Assembly: GCF_004010195.1 (NCBI RefSeq)
Contig: NC_057719.1
Coordinates: 6,072,309 to 6,092,308, forward strand
Reading direction: 5' to 3'
DNA from: Chiloscyllium plagiosum
Taxonomy: Eukaryota
Length of the DNA: 20,000 nucleotides
A program made the translations under genes and the position numbers. Positions 5,655 to 20,000 of this stretch are shown here, in pieces. Position 1 is the first letter of the stretch. The number at the start of each line of letters is the position of its first letter. The notes below the pieces were generated by a model. It searched no databases. It had not been told where the DNA came from and saw nothing but the letters and a program-made list of their open reading frames with translations.

Positions 5655-5860
5655 CATGAGCTATCTTCTTGAACTGCTGCAGTCCATTTGCTATAAGTTG
5701 ACCCACAATGCCAAAGAGGGAGGGATTTTGACCCAGTGATAGTGAAGGAAAGGCAATACATTTCCAAGTCAGGATGGTGAGTGGCTTGGAGGGGAACTTG
5801 CAGGGGATGGTGTTCCCTTGTCCTTTTAGGTGTCGAGGTCACAGATTTGGTAGGTGGCAC
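5655..5860 (-). mobile_element. LINE fragment of the same family as 17630-19570
   Basis: Reverse complement resembles about 19330-19490 ('gggaacaccatc..ttcccctccaagcc..ctcacca..ttggaaat..gggtcaaaatc'). Confidence 0.75.
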
Positions 5861-6369
5861 CAGGGAATGTATCAGAATGTGCCCAAAAGAAAAATGAAAG
5901 CAAATAAGACCAGGTAAGTCTGTGATCTGTTCTACTCAAACTCAACCCATCATTGAACTTTCCTGTCTGTTTCCAAAGAGACAATCTAGTCACATCATGC
6001 ACACAGAATGCAGATGGGCAATAACTTTTTGCATTGATTTATATTTTTGGTTTTTACCATAGCAACACTTGGCACTTTAACAAATTAAAACAGCAAATCA
6101 GTCAAGCTTGTAGAATTTCAATTACATTATGGCTATCAGATTGCAATGTTAACTGATGTTTGGATTTTTTTTGCATTTTAGGTCATTGGGAATAAGAACA
6201 AAGGAAATCAATCTCCATTTGCAAATAATACGCTGATCCCTATGTTTGTTTTGAAGCCAGATCGGGTCTCATCATGTGTTAATGTGGTTGATCTCCGTTG
6301 TGGCAGCAGTAAGGGTGTGCTGTTATTCTTGTCCATGGTACAGGGTAGATAGAGAATGTGCCAGTTCAT

Positions 6370-6564
6370 AGGTAAAAACAAGCACTGCAGATGCTGAAAA
6401 CCAGAGTCTAGATTAGAGTGGTGCTGGAAAAGCACAGCAGTTCAGGCAGCAACCAAGGAGCAGGAAAATCATCGTTTCGGGAAGGGCTTTTGCCCGAAAC
6501 GTCAATTTTCCTGCTCCTCGGATGCTGCCTGAACTGCTGTTTATTTCCAGCATCACTCTAATCT
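6370..6564. mobile_element. Penelope-derived short palindromic element, copy 1
   Basis: About 75-bp inverted arms (6407-6481 and 6493-6567); flanking 17-bp direct repeat agaatgtgccagttcat at 6353-6369 and 6565-6581, overlapping the arm end by 3 nt. Confidence 0.8.
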
Positions 6565-6791
6565 AGAATGTGCCAGTTCATTACTATTTAGCATCCACTG
6601 TTCAAAGTTATGTTTCTCCACTCAGGCTTGGGATGTGGGTATCACAAAGCCAGCAATTCTTGACAATCACAGCTGTCTTTGAGGAAGTCCTGGTGAGCTA
6701 CCTTTTGGAACTGCTGCAGTTTTTGTGTGTAGCTACAATTGCTGCTAAGGATGAATTGTGGGATTTCAGCTGTCAATAGTGAGCTGTAGGC

Positions 6792-6928
6792 AAAAGTGAG
6801 GACTGCAGTTGCTGGAAACCAGAGTTTAGATCAGAGTGGTGCTGGAAAAGCACAGAAGGTCAGGCACCATTCGAGGAGCATCTTTCCTGATGAAGGGCTT
6901 TTGCTGAAACATCAGTTTTCCTGCTCCA
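6792..6928. mobile_element. Penelope-derived short element, copy 2, with + strand hammerhead core motifs
   Basis: Similar to copy 1; CTGATGA at 6887-6893, GGGC-TTTT-GCT, GAAA at 6906-6909; 17-bp direct repeat aatagtgagctgtaggc at 6775-6791 and 6929-6945. Confidence 0.8.
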
Positions 6929-7102
6929 AATAGTGAGCTGTAGGCCATACATTTAGAAGGTACGAAGGAAAAGCCATAATGAGTTGCATCTTGTAGGTGG
7001 TACATCCTGTCACATCCATGCACTGGTTGTGGAGGGAATGGATGTTCAAAGTGGTGAATAAACTGATAATTGTGTCCTGTATGGGCAATAATATTTTTAG
7101 GT

Positions 7103-7219
7103 AAAAACAGATGCTGGAAACCAGAGTCTAGATTAGAGTGGTGCTGGAAAAGCACAGCAGGTCAGGCAGCATCCAAGGAGCAGGAAAATCAACGTTTCAA
7201 GCAAAAGTCCTTCATCAGG
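7103..7219. mobile_element. Penelope-derived short element, copy 3 (single arm), with - strand hammerhead core motifs
   Basis: Close to the left arm of copy 1; reverse complement of 7191-7220 is tcCTGATGAaggacttttgcttGAAAcgtt; 13-bp direct repeat aatatttttaggt at 7090-7102 and 7220-7232. Confidence 0.8.
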
Positions 7220-7774
7220 AATATTTTTAGGTGTGCCTTCATCCAAGAAATTCAGAATATTCCTTCAGATTTCTGACTTAAGTCTTGGAGGTAGTGGTCA
7301 GGCTTAGGGGAGTCAATTAGTGAGTTACTCATTGTAGCATTCCTCGCCTCTGACCTGCTCTGGTAACCATTGTGTTTGTATAGGTGGTCTAGTTTAGTCT
7401 CGTCAAGTCTCACAGTCAAGTCTACAGTGTTGGCATTCATGGTCAAGTAGGTTCCCAGCTCTCTCTGTCTGTGTTCACATGTGAATAAAGGCTTATCCAA
7501 GCAAGTCTTTAGCAGGCACATCACCCCAGGAACTGTGAGGTTGCAGGAGAGATGCTTAAAGTAAAGGAGTGGTTACAGTACGAATCTGGTCAAACACGTT
7601 CAGTGTGAGCTGACAATAACTAGGGGAGATGAAAGACTGTTGAGCATGTCACTTTGCGGTGTTGGTCTGATCCACCTGTGATTCCAGGTGACACTCTATG
7701 TTGAGTCATAATCCCCTGTTTGAGGTGACGAGGTGAGCTTTTCAGTGTTAAAGGAATTGCTGTTGCAGTAAATG

Positions 7775-9644: not shown

Positions 9645-9775
9645 TGAGGTACACAAGACATTGATTGCCATTCAGCCCTTCGAGCCTGCCCCACCATTCA
9701 ATAAGGTCATGGTTGATCTGATGTTAACCTTCTTGCATATCCCTTTGGCAATCAAGAGTCTATCTACCTCAAAGT
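9645..9775 (-). mobile_element. CR1 3' tail fragment
   Basis: 'gccattcagcccttcgagcctgccccaccattcaataaggtcatggttgatctg' is a typical CR1 3'UTR in reverse. Confidence 0.7.
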
Positions 9776-11325: not shown

Positions 11326-12658
11326 GACTCCAGCTTCTCACTACGGTCTGAAGTCCCCACCTGCTTCCAGAGGTCCATCATCCTGGAGCCAAAGCAAAAT
11401 CATGCAGCTTGCCTGAATGACTGACACCCAGTAGCTCTGACCTCCATAACTATGAAGTGCTTCGAGAGGTTAGTCATGGCTCACATTAACTCCAGCCTCC
11501 CAGCCTGCCTTGATCCTTTGCGATTCGCCTACTGGCACAACAGTTCCACAGCAGATGCCATCTCCCTGGTCCTACACTCATCCCTGGAACGTCTGGATAA
11601 CAAGGATACCTACATCAGGCTCCCACTTATTGACTACAGTTCCGCCTTCAACACCACAATTCCAAACAAACTCATCTCTGAACTCCGTGGTCTTGGCTCT
11701 CTCCTCTGTAACTGGATCCTCGACCTCCTGACCCATAGACCACAGTCAGTAAGAACAGGTGACAGCACCTCCTCCATGATAATCCTCAACACCAGAGCCC
11801 CGCAAGGCTGTGTACTCAGCCCTCTACTATACTCCTTATACATAAACCACTGTGTCGCCAAATTCTGCACTAACTCCATTTCCTAGTTTGCTGACGACAC
11901 CATTGTTGTAGGTTGGATCTCAAACAATGATGAGGTGGAATACAGGAAAGACATGGTTTGCTTAGCTGCATGGCGTTAAGACAACAATCTCTCCTTTCTG
12001 GTTATTGGCTTCAGAAAGTGGAGTGGAGGGAATGCCTCTGTCTGTATCAGTGGAGCTGAGGGTGGAGACGGTGGAGAGCATCAAGTTCCTGGGAGTGATG
12101 ATCACCATCATCCACCCACATCGACACCTCTACTTCCTCAGGAGGCTAAGGAAATTTGGGATCAATACTAGAAATTGCTGGAAAAACTCAGAATTCGAGC
12201 AGCATTTGTGGAGAGTGGCTTCAGTTTTTAACAAGGGAATTCAGCACGTCCACAAGAACTCTCATCAAGAGATGCACCGTAGAAGGCATCCTGTCTGGAT
12301 CCATCACTGTGTGGTATGGCAACTGCACTTCCCAACACTGTGAGAAACTACAAAGAGTCATGAACACAGCCCAGTCCATCACTCAAGCCAGCCTTCTAGT
12401 CTCTACCATTCTCTTCCATCAGGTAGAAGATAGGTACATTCAAACATTTATATGAACAAATTCAAGAATAGCTTCTTCCCTGCTGTTACCAGACTTTTGA
12501 ACAGGCCACTCAAATGTTAATTGTGATCTCTCTCTCTGCACCTTCTATTCTCTGTTCTGCTTCCCTGACGCACTCTGTCAATTTGCCTGCATAACGTGCA
12601 AAACAACACTTTTCACTGTATCCCGGTATATGTGACAACAATACACCAGTCAATCAAC
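11326..12658 (+). mobile_element. 5'-truncated Rex1/Babar-clade LINE with disrupted RT
   Basis: [27 protein letters not shown]...IDYSSAFNT...[14 protein letters not shown]...*FADD, then LYFLRRLRKFG and WYGNCT; tail 'tgtgacaacaat..gtcaatcaa'; contains stops and frameshifts. Confidence 0.88.
12160..12232. mobile_element. Short Penelope-derived fragment inserted in the Rex element
   Basis: 'gaaattgctggaaaaactcag..gcagcatttgtggagag' interrupts RRLRKFG|xSTRTL; degenerate duplication aaggaaatttgg / aagggaattcag flanks it. Confidence 0.55.
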
Positions 12659-12993
12659 ATACAAGGTCACTCTTCTATCCGATTGTGTATAATGGGGCTG
12701 GTTTGTAATCTCTACCTATAACTCCAATTCATATTTTTCTCCGTCATTAGCTCCTCTGGAAGACCATTTGTGTCATTAGCCAGCAGAAGCAATTGACATG
12801 TTCCTGTGTCTGTAAAAACCATTAATGCTTTACCTCATTCAGTCAAAGGATGAATAAATACCTCTCCCTGTGATCATAACTGTCCCGAGCCATCTCCCCT
12901 TTCTAATCAATGCTGAGGGAACACACTGTTCCTCTATCACTGCTACAGTTTATACCCCCTTTTCCTTTTCTGATACACTCTTTGCTTAAGGTT
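12659..12993 (-). pseudogene. Gypsy (Gmr1-like) aspartic protease remnant
   Basis: Minus translation SQGEVFIHPLTE*GKALMVFTDTGTCQLLLL...LPEELMTEK, then after a frameshift GVIGRDYKPAPLYTIG*KSDLV; catalytic D-T-G codons at 12802-12810. Confidence 0.75.
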
Positions 12994-13690
12994 CATTGGG
13001 TGAGATTCTGAATGTTTACTTTGCATCAGTGTTCACTGAGGAGAGGAACATGATGAATGTTGAGATTAGAAATAAAAGTTTGATTAGTCTGGATTATGTT
13101 GACATAAGTAGGGAAGCTGTGTTGGGTATGCTAGAGGTTATTAAGGTGGACAAATCCCCAGGACCGGTTGGGATCTATCCCAGGTTTCTGAGGGAGGCGA
13201 GAGAGGAAATAGCTGGGGCCCTGACAGGTATCTTTGTAACATCCTTAAATACAGGTGAGGTGCCGGAGGACTGGAAGGTTGCTCATGTTGTCCCCCTGTA
13301 CAAGAAGGGTAGTAGGGATATTTCAGGTAACTACAGACTAATGAGCCTGACGTCAGTGGTGGGAAAGTTGCTGAAAAAGGGACTGAGGGATAGGATCTAT
13401 TTATATTTAGAAAGAATGGGCTTATCAGTGATAGGCAACATGGTTTTGTGCGGGGGAGATCGTGCCTTACCACCTTAAGAGTTCTTAGAGTAAGTGACCA
13501 AGTTGATAGATGAAGGAAGGGCTGTTGATGTCATATACATGGACTTTGGTAAGGCATTTGATAAGGTCCCCATTGTTAGACTAATGGAGAAAGTGAAGTC
13601 ACATGGTGTGCAGGATGTTCTAGCTAGGTGGATAAAGAACTGGTTGAGCAACAGGAGACAGAGAGTAGTAGTTGAAGGGAGTTTCTCGAA

Positions 13691-13948
13691 NNNNNNNNNN
13701 NNNNNNNNNNNNNNNNNNNNNNNNNNNNNNNNNNNNNNNNNNNNNNNNNNNNNNNNNNNNNNNNNNNNNNNNNNNNNNNNNNNNNNNNNNNNNNNNNNNN
13801 NNNNNNNNNNNNNNNNNNNNNNNNNNNNNNNNNNNNNNNNNNNNNNNNNNNNNNNNNNNNNNNNNNNNNNNNNNNNNNNNNNNNNNNNNNNNNNNNNNNN
13901 NNNNNNNNNNNNNNNNNNNNNNNNNNNNNNNNNNNNNNNNNNNNNNNN
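13691..13948. other. Assembly gap (258 N)
   Basis: Run of N bases. Confidence 1.
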
Positions 13949-14163
13949 TGGAAGGTGCTAGCTATGAAGAGAGGTTGAGTAGGTTAGGATTGTTTTCATT
14001 AGAAAAAAGGAGATTGAGGGGGGACCTGATTGAGGTTTACAAAATCATGAAGGGTATAGACAGGATGGATAGAGACAAGCTTTTTCCCAGGGTGAAGGAT
14101 TCAATAACGAGAGGTCACTCTTTCAAGGTGAGAGGTGGAAAGTTTAAGGGGGATACACGCGGC

Positions 14164-14329
14164 CACAGAGGGTAGTGGGTGTTTGGAACACGTTGCCAGC
14201 AGAGGTAGTAGAGGCAAGCACGGTAGATTCATTTAAGGTGTGTCTCACACAGAGGGTGATGGGTGTCTGGAACGTGTTGCCAGCAGAGGTAGTAGAGGCA
14301 GGAACGGTAGATTCATTTAAGATGCGTCT
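14164..14329 (+). repeat. 82-bp tandem duplication inside the CR1 3' region
   Basis: 14164-14245 versus 14248-14329, 9 mismatches by manual alignment. Confidence 0.9.
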
Positions 14330-15406: not shown

Positions 15407-15925
15407 ATAGAGCAATAGAGTCAGGCAGCATCCTTTGGTCCAACCAATCTATGCCGACTATAATCCCAAACTAAACTCGTCCCATCTGCCTGCTCCTGGA
15501 CCATATTCCTCCAAGCCTTTCCTATTCATGTACTTACCTAAATGTTGTTTAAATGTTATAACTGGACCCACAGGCACCACTTCCTCAAAAGTTCATTCCA
15601 ACACATGAACCGTCCTCTGTGTAAAATAATTGGCCCTGACTTTTTAAAAATCTCTCTCTTCTCACCTTAAAACTGCGTCCCCTAGTCTTGAAAGCCCCAC
15701 CCTAGGGAAAAGACACTTGCCATTAACCATATCTACATCCCTCATGATTTTATAAACCCCTATAAGGTCACCTCTCAACCTTCTATGTTCCACTGACAAA
15801 AGTCCCAGCCTATCCAGCCTCTCCTTATAACTCAAACCCTCCATTCCCTGCAATATCTTGTTAAATCTCTTCTGAATCCTCTCCAGCTGAATAATATCCT
15901 TCCTATAACAGAGTGACCAGAAATG
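15407..15925 (-). mobile_element. 5'-truncated CR1 LINE inserted into Gypsy gag
   Basis: Minus ORF GMEGLSYKERLDRLGLLSVEHRRLRGDLIGVYKIMR; tail 'tatagagcaatagagtc'. Confidence 0.88.
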
Positions 15926-16300
15926 ATGACAGCATTTTTTAAACTTTCTGTCTTTTTCAATTTCTCGTTTTCCTTCATTTAAATTTCCTCATTCCTCTTT
16001 CTCTTTCTCCTCCAGTTCAGGCCTTCTCACCTCTCTCCCACCCTCCATGTCATTTTTCTTTTCATTTTGAACTGTATTTTTAGTTAATTCTTTTGATCAC
16101 GCATTAAGTTCAGATGGCCCTCCTTTTAATTCTAAATGTTGAATAATCATTTTAAGCATCTAATCCATGCTAGATCCTGGTTTTATTTCAACCTTCAATT
16201 AACCAAAAAATCTCACAGTTTAACCTCCGCCCAAAGCTGTGAAATATTCTCTTGTTATATTTTCTACTCCCGAGAAAACCTTAGCAACATTCATAGCCAT
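15926..16300 (-). pseudogene. Gypsy gag N-terminus remnant
   Basis: ATG at 16300 reads MAMNVAKVFSGVENITREYFTALG, then LKMIIQHLEL and a purine-rich E/K/R coiled-coil-like stretch that resumes at 15406. Confidence 0.65.
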
Positions 16301-16439: not shown

Positions 16440-17626
16440 TATTATGATCCCAGCTGATGACAATAACGGACAAGTCAGATTCCAAACTGAAACCTGCTTA
16501 ATAAGTGATAAAGTTAAACAATTGTGATTGTGATACTGTGGTGATCAGTCACTGAAAGTATTCACAAGAGGCTGCCAATGTACTTTTAATAAAATAACAG
16601 ATTTATTACACAAAATACAGTCTAATAATAAAAAGTTCTAACAGACAATTTGGAAACAGCACAAAGAAAGATTTGATCCTTTTTGTCAGCATTGCACTCA
16701 GCTGAAAAATCATTCCTATCTTCACTCACAATTTCTTACTCAACTGACAAGGTCTCTCATAATTCCTTTTGGTGACTTTCTGTTGGGGAGATGTTTCCAC
16801 TGGTAGGAGAAAAGGGAAGACCTTTTAGAACAGAGATAAGGAGAAACATCTTCAGCCAGAGAGTGGGGAATCTATGGAATTCACTGCCACTGAAGGCTGT
16901 GGAGGCCGGGTCATTGAGTACCTTTCAGACTGAGATAGATAGATTCTTGATTGTCAAGGGGATCAAGGGTTACAGGGAGAAAGCAGGAGAATGGGGTTGA
17001 GAAACTTATCAGCCATGATTGAATGGTGGAGCAGACTCGATGGGCTGAATGGCCGAATGTCTGCTCCAATGACTTATGGTCTTTCTGCACATTAGCCAGA
17101 TGTGATTCTCACTCACACAGTGACATAGAGACACAGGCTAACTCACTGGTGTTTGTCTTACTAAATCCTAAAACAATCCCAGCACTTTCTCTAGCAATGT
17201 TCACTTGCTCTGCAAAAGTAGTTTCAGACTCCTTTCCAGCTCTGATGGCCTGGAGACCACCAAAGACAAAAATTGTCCTTCTGCTGGTTTACATCTGCTT
17301 GCGGCTCCTGACCACTCTTTCTTGACATGTTAAAACACACCAGCAATTTTCGCATCAGGTCGTGTATCTAGTCATTTAGCTTAAGTTACAAACTTTCTTG
17401 GATGTGCTGTTTTGACCTCAATGTCAAAAATGATTTTCTGACCTGTTAAAAAAATTGCCTTAAAGACCTAAAACAAAAGCTCTTTTACTTCTAGAATCCA
17501 AGCCTTAGTTAATAATAATATATTATAAACCTTTGTCACACTTTCCTACCTACCGTTACATCATCAGGAAATGTGGTTATAACACACTTGGCACCTTCAT
17601 TCAAGTCATTAATATAGATCATAATA
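16440..17626 (-). repeat. Putative 5' LTR of the Gypsy element; distal end uncertain (17540, 17560, 17584 or 17626)
   Basis: Adjacent to the PBS and upstream of gag; minus-strand AATAAA at 16602-16607; perfect 10-bp inverted repeat tattatgatc (16440-16449) / gatcataata (17617-17626). Confidence 0.55.
16783..17080 (+). mobile_element. Short CR1 3' end inserted in the LTR
   Basis: FRTEIRRNIFSQRVGNLWNSLP (ORF2 end), tail 'cttatggt'; candidate 7-bp TSD ctttctg at 16776-16782 and 17081-17087. Confidence 0.85.
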
Positions 17627-17629
17627 TAG

Positions 17630-19570
17630 TTGCTGGTCTAATGAAGAGATCAGGAGGACATGCCAGGAGCAGCACCAGGCAGACCTGAAGATGAGGTGTT
17701 AACCTGGTGAAGCTACCAAACAGGACTACTTCCATGCCAAACAGCATAAGCAACAAGTGATAGATATAGCTCAGTGATCCCACAGTCACTGGATCAATTC
17801 TAAGCTCTGCAGTCCTGCCACATCCAGTTGTGAATTGTGGTGGATGATTAAACAACCCACTGGAGGGGGAGAGTCCACAAATATCCACATCCTCAATGTT
17901 GGAGGATCTCAGCACATCGGAGCAAAAGATAAGGCTGAAGCTTTCACAGCAATCTTCAGCCAGAAGTGCCCAATGGACGATCCATCTTGGACTCCTCCAG
18001 TAATCCTCAATATTACAGATACCAGTCTTTACTCCATATATTGGAAGCACTGGATACTGCAAAAGATACAATTGACAACATTCAGGCAATAGTACTGAAG
18101 GTCTGTGCTCCAGAACCTGTCGCTCCCCTTGTCAAGCTGTTCCAGTCCAGTTACAACACTGGCATCTACTCAACAATGTCAAAAATTGCCCAAGTATGCA
18201 AAAACCAGGATAAATCCAACCCGGCCAATTACTGCCCCATCAATCTACTCTTGCTCATCAGTAAGGGGCATCAACCGTGCTATCCAGCAGCATCTGCTCA
18301 GCAATAACCTGCTCAGTGACGCCCAGTTTGGGTTCTGCCAGGGCCACTCAGCTCCTGACCTCATTACAGCCTTGGTTCAAACATGGACAAAAGGAGCTGA
18401 ATTCCAGAGGGGAGGGGAGAGGGCCAGCCTCTGACAACTAGGCTGCATTCGACTGAGTGTGGTATTAAGGAGCCCTGGCTAATTCCGGAATCAATGTATC
18501 TCGGGGGAAAACTCTCCAGTGGTAAGAGTCATACGTGACACAAAGGAAGATGATTGTGGTTGTTGGAGATCAGTCATCTCAGCTGCAGGACATCTCTGCA
18601 GGAGTCCCTCAGGGTTGTGTCCTAGGCCCAACCATCTTCAGCTGCTTCATCAATGATCTTCACTCCATCGTAAGGTCAGAGGTGGGGATTTTCGCTGATG
18701 ATTGCACAATGTTCAGCACCATTCGCACTCCTCAGATGCAGCAACAGTCCGTGTCCAAATGCAACAAGATCTGGACAATATCCAGGCTTGGGCTTACAAG
18801 TGGCAAGTAACTTTTGTGCCACACAAATGTCAGGTAATGACCATCACCAATAAGAGACGATCTAACCACTGTCCCTTGATATTCAATGGTGTTACCATCA
18901 CTGAATCCCCCAATGTCAACATTCTGGGAGTTATCATTGACCTTAGACTCAACTGGACTCACTACATAAACTCAGTCTATACAAAAGCAGCTCAGAGGCT
19001 GGGACTCCTGCAGCAAGTAACTCACCTCTTGACTCCCCAAAGCCTGTCCACCATCTACAAGGCACAAGTCAGGAGTGTGATGGATTACTCCCCACTTGCC
19101 TGGACGGGGGCAGCTCCAACAACGCTCAAGACCAACAACGCCATCCAGGACAAAGCAGCCGCTTGATTGGCACCACATCCACAAGCATCCACTCCCTCCA
19201 GCACCCATGTTCAGTAGCAGCAGTGTGTACTATCCACAGGATGCACTGCAAAAATTCACCAAAGATCCTCTGTTTAGCACCTTCCAAACCCACGGCCACT
19301 TCCATCTAGAAGGACGAGGGCAGCAGATACATGGGAACACCATCAGCTTCACTTTCCCCTCCAAGCCGCTCACCAACCCGGCTTGGAAATATATCGCTAT
19401 CGCTGGGTCAAAATCTTGGAATTCCCTCCCTAAGGGCATTGTGGGAAAACCAATAGCACATGGAAGGCAGTAGTTTAAAATGGCAGCTCACCCCCACCTT
19501 CTCAAGGGACAACTAGGGACATGTAATAAATACTGGGCCCAGCCAGCGACACCCACAAACTAAAAAGAAT
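17630..19570 (+). mobile_element. 5'-truncated CR1/L2-group LINE of a second family, disrupted ORF2 through the 3' end
   Basis: LKVCAPEPVAPLVKLFQ, SNPANYCPINLL, QFGFCQGHS, SAGVPQGCVLGPTIFSCFINDL...FADD and LSTIYKAQVRSVMDYS across several frames; ends 'ccagccagcgacacccacaaactaaaaagaa'. Confidence 0.88.
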
Positions 19571-19632: not shown

Positions 19633-20000
19633 AATAGAACATAGAACAATACAGCACAGAACAGGCCCTTCGGCCCACGATGTTGTGCCGAACATTTGTC
19701 CTAGCTTAAGCACCCATCCATGTACCTATCCAATTGCCGCTTAAAGGTCACCAATGATTCTGACTCTGCCACTCCCACAGGCAGAGCATTCCATGCCCCC
19801 ACCACTCTCTGGGTAAAGAACCCACCCCTGACATCTCCCCTATACCTTCCACCCTTCACCTTAAATTTATGTCCCCTTGTAACACTCTGTTGTACCCAGG
19901 GAAAAAGTTTCTGACTGTCTACTCTATCTATTCCTCTGATCATCTTATAAACCTCTATCAAGTCACCCCTCATCCTTCACCGTTCCAACGAGAAAAGGCC
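19633..20000 (-). mobile_element. Young CR1 LINE 3' end, continuing beyond the window
   Basis: Uninterrupted minus ORF RGDLIEVYKMIRGIDRV...FFTQRVVGAWNALP...FKRQLDRYMDG; tail 'atagaacatagaaca'; CpGs retained. Confidence 0.92.

Follow-up and report, generated by a model that had tools for sequence, protein, structure and literature searches.

The question raised by this locus is which kind of element left three short, related inserts, each bearing all or part of a hammerhead-ribozyme core, between positions 6353 and 7232 of the window, the whole stretch of 20,000 nucleotides that was analysed. A sequence-only reading had presented them as a mobile, retrozyme-like family derived from Penelope-like elements (PLEs). 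The coordinates, lengths and motifs that it gave were reproduced, with bodies of 195, 137 and 117 bp between the duplications of copies 1, 2 and 3, and its view of a mobile family was borne out by exact target-site duplications and by insertion into older DNA. The duplications measure 17, 17 and 13 bp in copies 1, 2 and 3, respectively, and the bases outside each repeat differ. As a control, 2922 intervals were drawn at random from the window, and 5 of them had direct repeats of at least 13 bases at comparable spacing; in four cases the repeat was 17 long and is probably a real duplication resampled. A blastn search of the 20,000-nt window detected no copy beyond these three.

When written in the direction in which the hammerhead is read, the five arms of the three copies align to one unit of ∼133 nt and are pairwise 75–94% identical over their shared columns. 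In all three copies, the main arm is minus-sense and stops at a common 3' point, and a common 5' limit is seen in the two copies that reach the hammerhead core. Copies 1 and 2 carry an extra, inverted 5' piece, and copy 3 is a plain, near-complete unit. Since the main arms are minus-sense and the 5' pieces are inverted, the plus-strand cores belong to the inverted pieces. A fixed 3' end, 5' truncation with an adjacent inverted piece and a duplication of variable length, as expected of PLE copies, are all present.

The left duplication of copy 1 (6353–6369) is repeated exactly at 6565–6581. Its main arm (6369–6480, minus strand; columns 25–136 of the unit) extends from the end of stem II and GAAAC to the family 3' end and shares 94% identity with copy 3 across 103 columns, and its inverted 5' piece (6481–6567, plus strand; columns 12–98) lacks CUGAU and overlaps the right duplication by its last three bases. 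Together, the arms form a long hairpin with a predicted energy of −119 kcal/mol (z −14.5), and 0 of 200 shuffles were as stable. The arms differ at 9 of 74 columns, which indicates that the insertion is old and that its arms were not homogenised. Positions 6446 and 6533 hold a base common to both arms and absent from copies 2 and 3, as expected if the arms came from one template.

Copy 2 is flanked by exact repeats at 6775–6791 and 6929–6945. Its main arm (6787–6880, minus strand; columns 43–136) is devoid of the hammerhead, and the 5' third of the unit is inverted (6884–6927, plus strand; columns 4–48), overlapping the start of the main arm by 6 nt. Copy 3 (7098–7222, minus strand) is uninverted, with a 9-nt deletion near its 3' end. 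It lies between duplications at 7090–7102 and 7220–7232, the first three bases of the latter also fitting the family 5' end as given by the loose-end consensuses. In copies 2 and 3, the final five bases of the left duplication match the element 3' terminus; in copy 1, the match is a single base. This five-base word occurs 29 times in the 20,000 bases (∼0.0015 per base in the window), and its recurrence in two of only three copies suggests either microhomology priming or a target preference.

A structural feature was also observed in the 3' two-thirds of the unit (7098–7175 on the minus strand and its counterparts in copies 1 and 2), for which a long stem enclosing smaller hairpins is predicted. 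The z score of this fold was −2.0 in copy 3, with 4 of 200 shuffles as stable, and the stem is present in the consensus too. It may represent a protein-binding structure or one at which reverse transcription starts. Among the difference rows and loose ends listed, subfamily variation seems to fall between the arms of this stem.

Copies 2 and 3 sit in a decayed LINE-type relic (6587–7443, minus strand) that lies outside the family and is colinear to 18894–19479. Upon removal of both bodies and one duplication each, the relic aligned to 18894–19479 with a score of 197, against at most 46 in 50 shuffles. As this empty-site reconstruction is colinear across both junctions, copies 2 and 3 are insertions into older DNA. 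A contig of organism B (DNA run X11) spans the right junction of copy 3, and the insertion therefore predates the split of organisms A and B; the left junction of copy 1 was reached in organism B by 26 bases only, the rule being 31 bases. No empty-site joint was seen among the 15 joints listed of 665 in the sequencing runs.

The host relic is one of several decayed copies of a LINE-type family (5657–5821, 6587–7443 and 17939–19490), with RVT_1 matches at 18526–19163. A further LINE-type relic at 11425–11886 has an RVT_1 match at 11425–11883, and 12990–14175, 15662–15988 and 19701–19976 are presumably more such relics, judging by their general resemblance and mutual repeats. Elsewhere in the window, an assembly gap of N falls within 13475–13983, an 84-bp unit is duplicated in tandem with an 89% match (14164–14329), and another dispersed repeat family occurs in inverted orientation, 79–92% alike (2343–2619 with 16807–17083; 9667–9771 with 16931–17053). 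Upstream of copy 1, a splice-donor-like sequence (5910–5920) and an acceptor-like one (6165–6185) were noted, and RNA depth was nil at 6200–6363 in both RNA runs matched to the window.

The letters of the hammerhead were compared with the minimal type I motif (min-HHR) of metazoan PLEs, in which, as drawn in Fig. S3 of Cervera and De la Pena 2014 (PMC4209133), a palindromic pair comes after GAAA, U-H comes next, and there is no loop III. The window consensus, which was computed from the arms with a CpG rule, holds the full motif, with a 4-bp stem II, a GUC triplet and a stem I with two Watson–Crick pairs. It fits the published motif including the bulged base, the G10.1–C11.1 pair and the loopless CG palindrome, in agreement with the earlier assignment to a Penelope-type core. 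The core of CUGANGA, an unpaired base, a stem II closed by G10.1–C11.1 and GAAA is present in both the consensus and the read majorities, and the palindromic 15.2–16.2 pair running without a loop III into U-H is seen in the consensus and, as GAAAC-GUC, in copy 1 (6496–6503). The sequence-only reading had been unable to draw a stem I or an NUH cleavage site. It had sought a looped stem III and missed the site: for the family, the layout is GAAAC directly followed by GUC, with a loopless palindromic stem III and a 2-bp stem I. Triplets stand at the expected place in all three copies (GUC at 6501–6503, AUC at 6911–6913 and GUU at 7193–7191). In the consensus, the two Watson–Crick pairs of stem I (UC/GA) are succeeded by U-U and A-U, and its predicted pair probability is below 0.03.

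Each copy retains a different part of this motif. On the plus strand, as previously read, the inverted piece of copy 1 keeps a perfect GGGC/GCCC stem II (6484–6495) and GAAAC (6496–6500), and that of copy 2 keeps a core at 6887–6910; in the latter, stem II is one base short and stems III and I are broken. On the minus strand, the core described for copy 3 was also confirmed, at 7218–7194; it comprises 7218–7212, a stem II at 7210–7199 with two G-U pairs and one A-C mismatch, and GAAAC at 7198–7194, and stem I pairs 7220–7219 with 7190–7189. The proposal that the palindromic form has a core on both strands did not hold for these copies, as a complete core is absent from copy 1 and is confined to the plus strand in copy 2 and to the minus strand in copy 3. 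Complete head-to-head forms do appear to exist in the family, the joint 7222–6481 being found in 15 contigs of DNA run X1 and 9 of X11.

In 20 Mb of dinucleotide-matched random sequence, the loose core occurred 42 times (∼0.004 per 880 bp, both strands) and the full minimal-hammerhead descriptor twice. None of the three window copies passes the strict descriptor, and neither does any of the eight other loose CUGANGA..GAAA matches in the window. An Rfam search returned eight matches with E up to 5, none of them a hammerhead; seven were to the copy 1 hairpin (RRE and miRNA families), below gathering and reflecting structure only. No covariation in stem II was detected in the window copies, in 40 of 108 difference rows or in 24 of 2096 loose ends, all of which sample one family.

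Sequence runs were used to look beyond the window. Reads and contigs were matched at 82% likeness to 6200–7400, X1 and X11 being DNA runs and X16 and X21 RNA runs. The matches, nearly all on the three copies, numbered 108,330 of 19,387,400 contigs in X1, 111,805 of 25,386,572 in X11, 7,841 of 1,060,404 in X16 and 3,688 of 12,955,460 raw RNA records in X21. The genomes may thus hold tens of thousands of copies or more, a figure to which the summed depth does not translate as a copy number. A look-up of sequencing runs listed no RNA run containing the sequence, an outcome that says nothing about expression. In more than 100,000 contigs per DNA run, the majority letters restore stem II and the cleavage triplet. 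The restoring letter makes up 55–82% of depth at 7191, the C of GUC, across the four runs and 68–81% at 6504; in copy 3, it makes up 88–95% at 7200, 77–96% at 7208 and, at 7199, 44–46% in the DNA runs and 58–84% in the RNA runs. Loose ends 5' of the core were heterogeneous at 6481 and 7222, with an agreement of 0.33–0.47 in X1, X11, X16 and X21, and the 24 loose-end consensuses listed of 2096 have only a few core-adjacent bases in common. Within the same 24, subfamily variants fall at N7 and loop II and not at core letters; these are positions at which the hammerhead tolerates variation. Among the difference rows and loose ends listed, there are subfamilies with indels in the 3' half.

The damage to the individual motifs consists of the missing CUGAU in copy 1, changes in stems II, III and I in copy 2 and the two G-U pairs and mismatch in stem II of copy 3. 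Most of these changes are transitions, of the CpG type or otherwise, and they do not compensate one another. The earlier caveat that the copies may be inactive or need dimerisation is upheld in both parts: no intact motif is present in any of the three, and a dimer or helper requirement is supported. The consensus monomer is predicted to favour an inactive extended stem (−11.4 kcal/mol), and the active dimer reaches −13.3 against −24.6 kcal/mol for the best dimer, in a folding model that ignores core tertiary contacts. These predictions fit the reports of poor cutting, only as dimers or with protein. A palindrome was considered as a source of the dimer partner and rejected; the two cores of a head-to-head palindrome lie on different strands, so that no dimer can form in cis, and its transcript folds into a long hairpin. 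Judging by the letters, the family RNA probably carried an ancestral minimal type I hammerhead, whose cleavage we infer.

Within the unit, 102 nt separate the cut site from the 3' end, and 122 nt separate the start of stem II from that end. Because the cut site is internal, the two copies that hold the core begin a few bases upstream of it and the loose ends diverge there, the template was most probably an uncut RNA. We consider the inserts to be old retrocopies, decaying neutrally, of the terminal module (a hammerhead-bearing pseudo-LTR, or pLTR, plus tail) of an endonuclease-positive PLE, a reading to which we give somewhat better than even chances. In the proposed sequence of events, the PLE protein would make a staggered cut 13–17 bp apart, and the nicked DNA would prime reverse transcription at a constant position inside the RNA, ∼122 nt downstream of hammerhead stem II, helped in two copies by a five-base RNA–DNA match. 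Copying of the uncleaved RNA would then end a few bases 5' of the core, probably where the RNA itself begins. The inverted 5' piece of copies 1 and 2 may have arisen because the second DNA end primed on the RNA as well; the resulting geometry of copy 2 is one that we take to resemble L1 twin priming. The ancestral RNA would have held a hammerhead that needs a dimer or the help of a protein for cutting, and the template was most likely transcribed from an autonomous or partial-tandem PLE and not from a dedicated mini-element.

As no PLE reverse transcriptase or GIY-YIG gene was found adjoining the inserts, the PLE link is drawn from architecture. No open reading frame with both domains is joined to the unit within the 20,000-nt window, nor would one be expected in an end piece of 130 nt. 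Pfam gave 0 GIY-YIG matches in the 29 window frames scanned of 46 listed, and returned three RVT_1 matches in LINE-type relics and one marginal, unrelated match. Six PLE protein motifs sought in six frames gave two weak matches of one motif, none convincing, and a protein search with the 30-residue frame through the copy 1 inverted arm gave 0 matches, a weak test with so short a query. DNA pattern scans yielded 0 and 0 matches in viral contigs and 0 and 0 in metagenomes; four loci in prokaryote genomes were dismissed as chance, their similarity stopping within 21–34 bases. Several findings count against the terminal-module reading: stem II showed no covariation in the sequences compared, stem I has only two Watson–Crick pairs, the duplications exceed the 8–10 bp reported for rotifer PLEs (PMC3846280, PMC8557442), two of the three targets are only 53–59% AT as against the AT-rich DNA preferred by the anole enzyme (PMC11167929), the five-base junction match departs from the homology-free start described for that enzyme, and the indel-rich subfamilies would fit independent short masters equally well.

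The last of these would suit a dedicated non-autonomous, SINE-like family, in which one or more ∼133-nt PLE-end masters would be transcribed alone and mobilised in trans by a PLE protein. The enzyme and the hammerhead would be identical to those of the terminal-module reading; the template alone differs. Fixed 5' and 3' ends, the very high abundance in X1 and X11, the subfamilies with 3'-half indels and the lack, in the window copies, of an open frame running from hammerhead to 3' end all agree with such masters, and in the rotifer, according to PMC3846280 and PMC8557442, pLTR sequences alone suffice for trans mobilisation. However, an internal start on a PLE transcript beginning in the pLTR would be expected to fix the ends as well. 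In addition, 99% of the matched X21 raw RNA reads, which come from both strands, continue into unlike sequence, and their starts and ends show no pile-up, in a poly(A) single-cell library that would miss short RNAs and is unsuited to showing cleavage; this pattern fits passive read-through. Independent masters are possible, and we hold them to be the less probable source. Whether the transcript came from an autonomous element or from a short master, a PLE origin as such is very probable. The fullest form of the proposal, a self-standing, hammerhead-headed PLE SINE of ∼133 nt at very high copy number, with priming by a match of a few bases and a second priming that gives the inverted half, appears doubtful.

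Non-LTR retrozymes, whose tandem monomers would be cut by the hammerhead, circularised and reverse-transcribed from circles, share the type I hammerhead and the long duplications, and PMC7229834 and Li et al. 2026 (10.64898/2026.07.22.740005) report families in one chondrichthyan genome as well as solo monomers. Yet no head-to-tail tandem units with complete hammerheads occur at these copies, the internal cut site leaves ends that are fixed and not permuted, and the motif is minimal rather than canonical and shows no read-end pile-up. As they neither form tandem units nor end at the cut site, the copies are not retrozymes in the published sense, and the label retrozyme-like was given up, the copies being solo, with the cut site kept inside and a start just upstream of the core; a retrozyme origin is very unlikely. 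Inversions of 5' ends through twin priming, long duplications and junction microhomology are LINE traits too, and the sole reverse transcriptase matches in the window are LINE relics, which would suit a SINE mobilised by a non-PLE LINE (CR1, L2 or RTE type, abundant in the window) that carried the hammerhead by chance. Against this, the 3' end has no poly(A) or simple-repeat tail, blastn of the unit against the window LINE relics gave only 12–14-base words and one weak 39-base match (E 0.03), and the motif type is known from PLE ends (PMC4209133), so that such an origin is highly improbable. The long palindrome of copy 1 could also recall a palindromic DNA-transposon derivative (MITE) with incidental hammerhead letters. 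Copies 2 and 3 are not palindromes, copy 3 largely refuting the idea, arm lengths and junctions vary among copies, duplications are 13 or 17 bp, and the full motif was as rare by chance as given above; a MITE is scarcely credible.

By motif and architecture, as read from the sequence, the inserts are best grouped with the dispersed minimal hammerheads known from truncated PLEs. As a ribozyme finding, this is ordinary, such hammerheads having been known since 2014 (PMC4209133). The many short, duplication-flanked copies are instead material for counting junction microhomology, inversion breakpoints and 5' ends genome-wide. These counts bear on the priming of reverse transcription by PLEs and on the origin of their inverted ends, for which three copies are too few. 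If the self-standing SINE were real, PLE priming would use microhomology in vivo, against the homology-free start in vitro described by Frangieh et al. 2024 (PMC11167929). It would also explain the head-to-head pLTRs previously ascribed to self-priming on antisense RNA, the mechanism favoured for inverted pieces by Arkhipova et al. (PMC3846280).

Comparison with known systems places the inserts closest to PLE ends. Non-LTR retrozymes consist of tandem repeats with one hammerhead per unit and are expressed as circles (PMC7229834; 10.64898/2026.07.22.740005). The inserts resemble them in being non-coding, in the type I hammerhead, in the long duplications and in the proposed PLE origin, and differ in that each is a single or inverted unit whose fixed ends do not lie at the cut site.

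The PLE min-HHRs mostly occur singly and dispersed, which has been attributed to truncated PLEs, with opposite-strand pairs noted, and they cut poorly and only as dimers (PMC4209133). The window consensus shares with them CUGANGA followed by an unpaired base, G10.1–C11.1, GAAA, the loopless palindromic C-G-U-C and a short stem I. Its stem II has 4 bp and its stem I has 2 bp plus U-U and A-U, which lies at the short end of the published motifs (D. virilis also has 2 bp). Cartilaginous fish are not represented among the 56 motifs of Fig. S3 in that paper, and our search of the openly accessible literature found no account of the motif in this group.

In the green anole element Poseidon, reverse transcription starts 111–118 nt after the start of the open reading frame, which coincides with the start of stem II; most templates are uncut RNA, and protein is required for cleavage (PMC11167929). 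The inserts agree in a hammerhead placed close to the beginning of the terminal module, in the probable use of an uncleaved template and in the distance to the start of reverse transcription, at 122 nt as against 111–118 in this one comparator. No frame or frame start can be assigned in the window copies and two of the three junctions have the five-base target–RNA match, unlike in Poseidon, and the likeness noted here is one of architecture.

PLE insertions have a direct pLTR, an adjacent inverted, 5'-truncated copy and a tail (Arkhipova et al. 2013, PMC3846280; Craig et al. 2021, PMC8557442). The inserts depart from this pattern in that the whole insert is an end module of 117–195 bp and in duplications of 13–17 rather than 8–10 bp. 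They conform to it in the head-to-head inverted piece, the short junction overlap, the target-site duplication and the occurrence of solo pLTRs.
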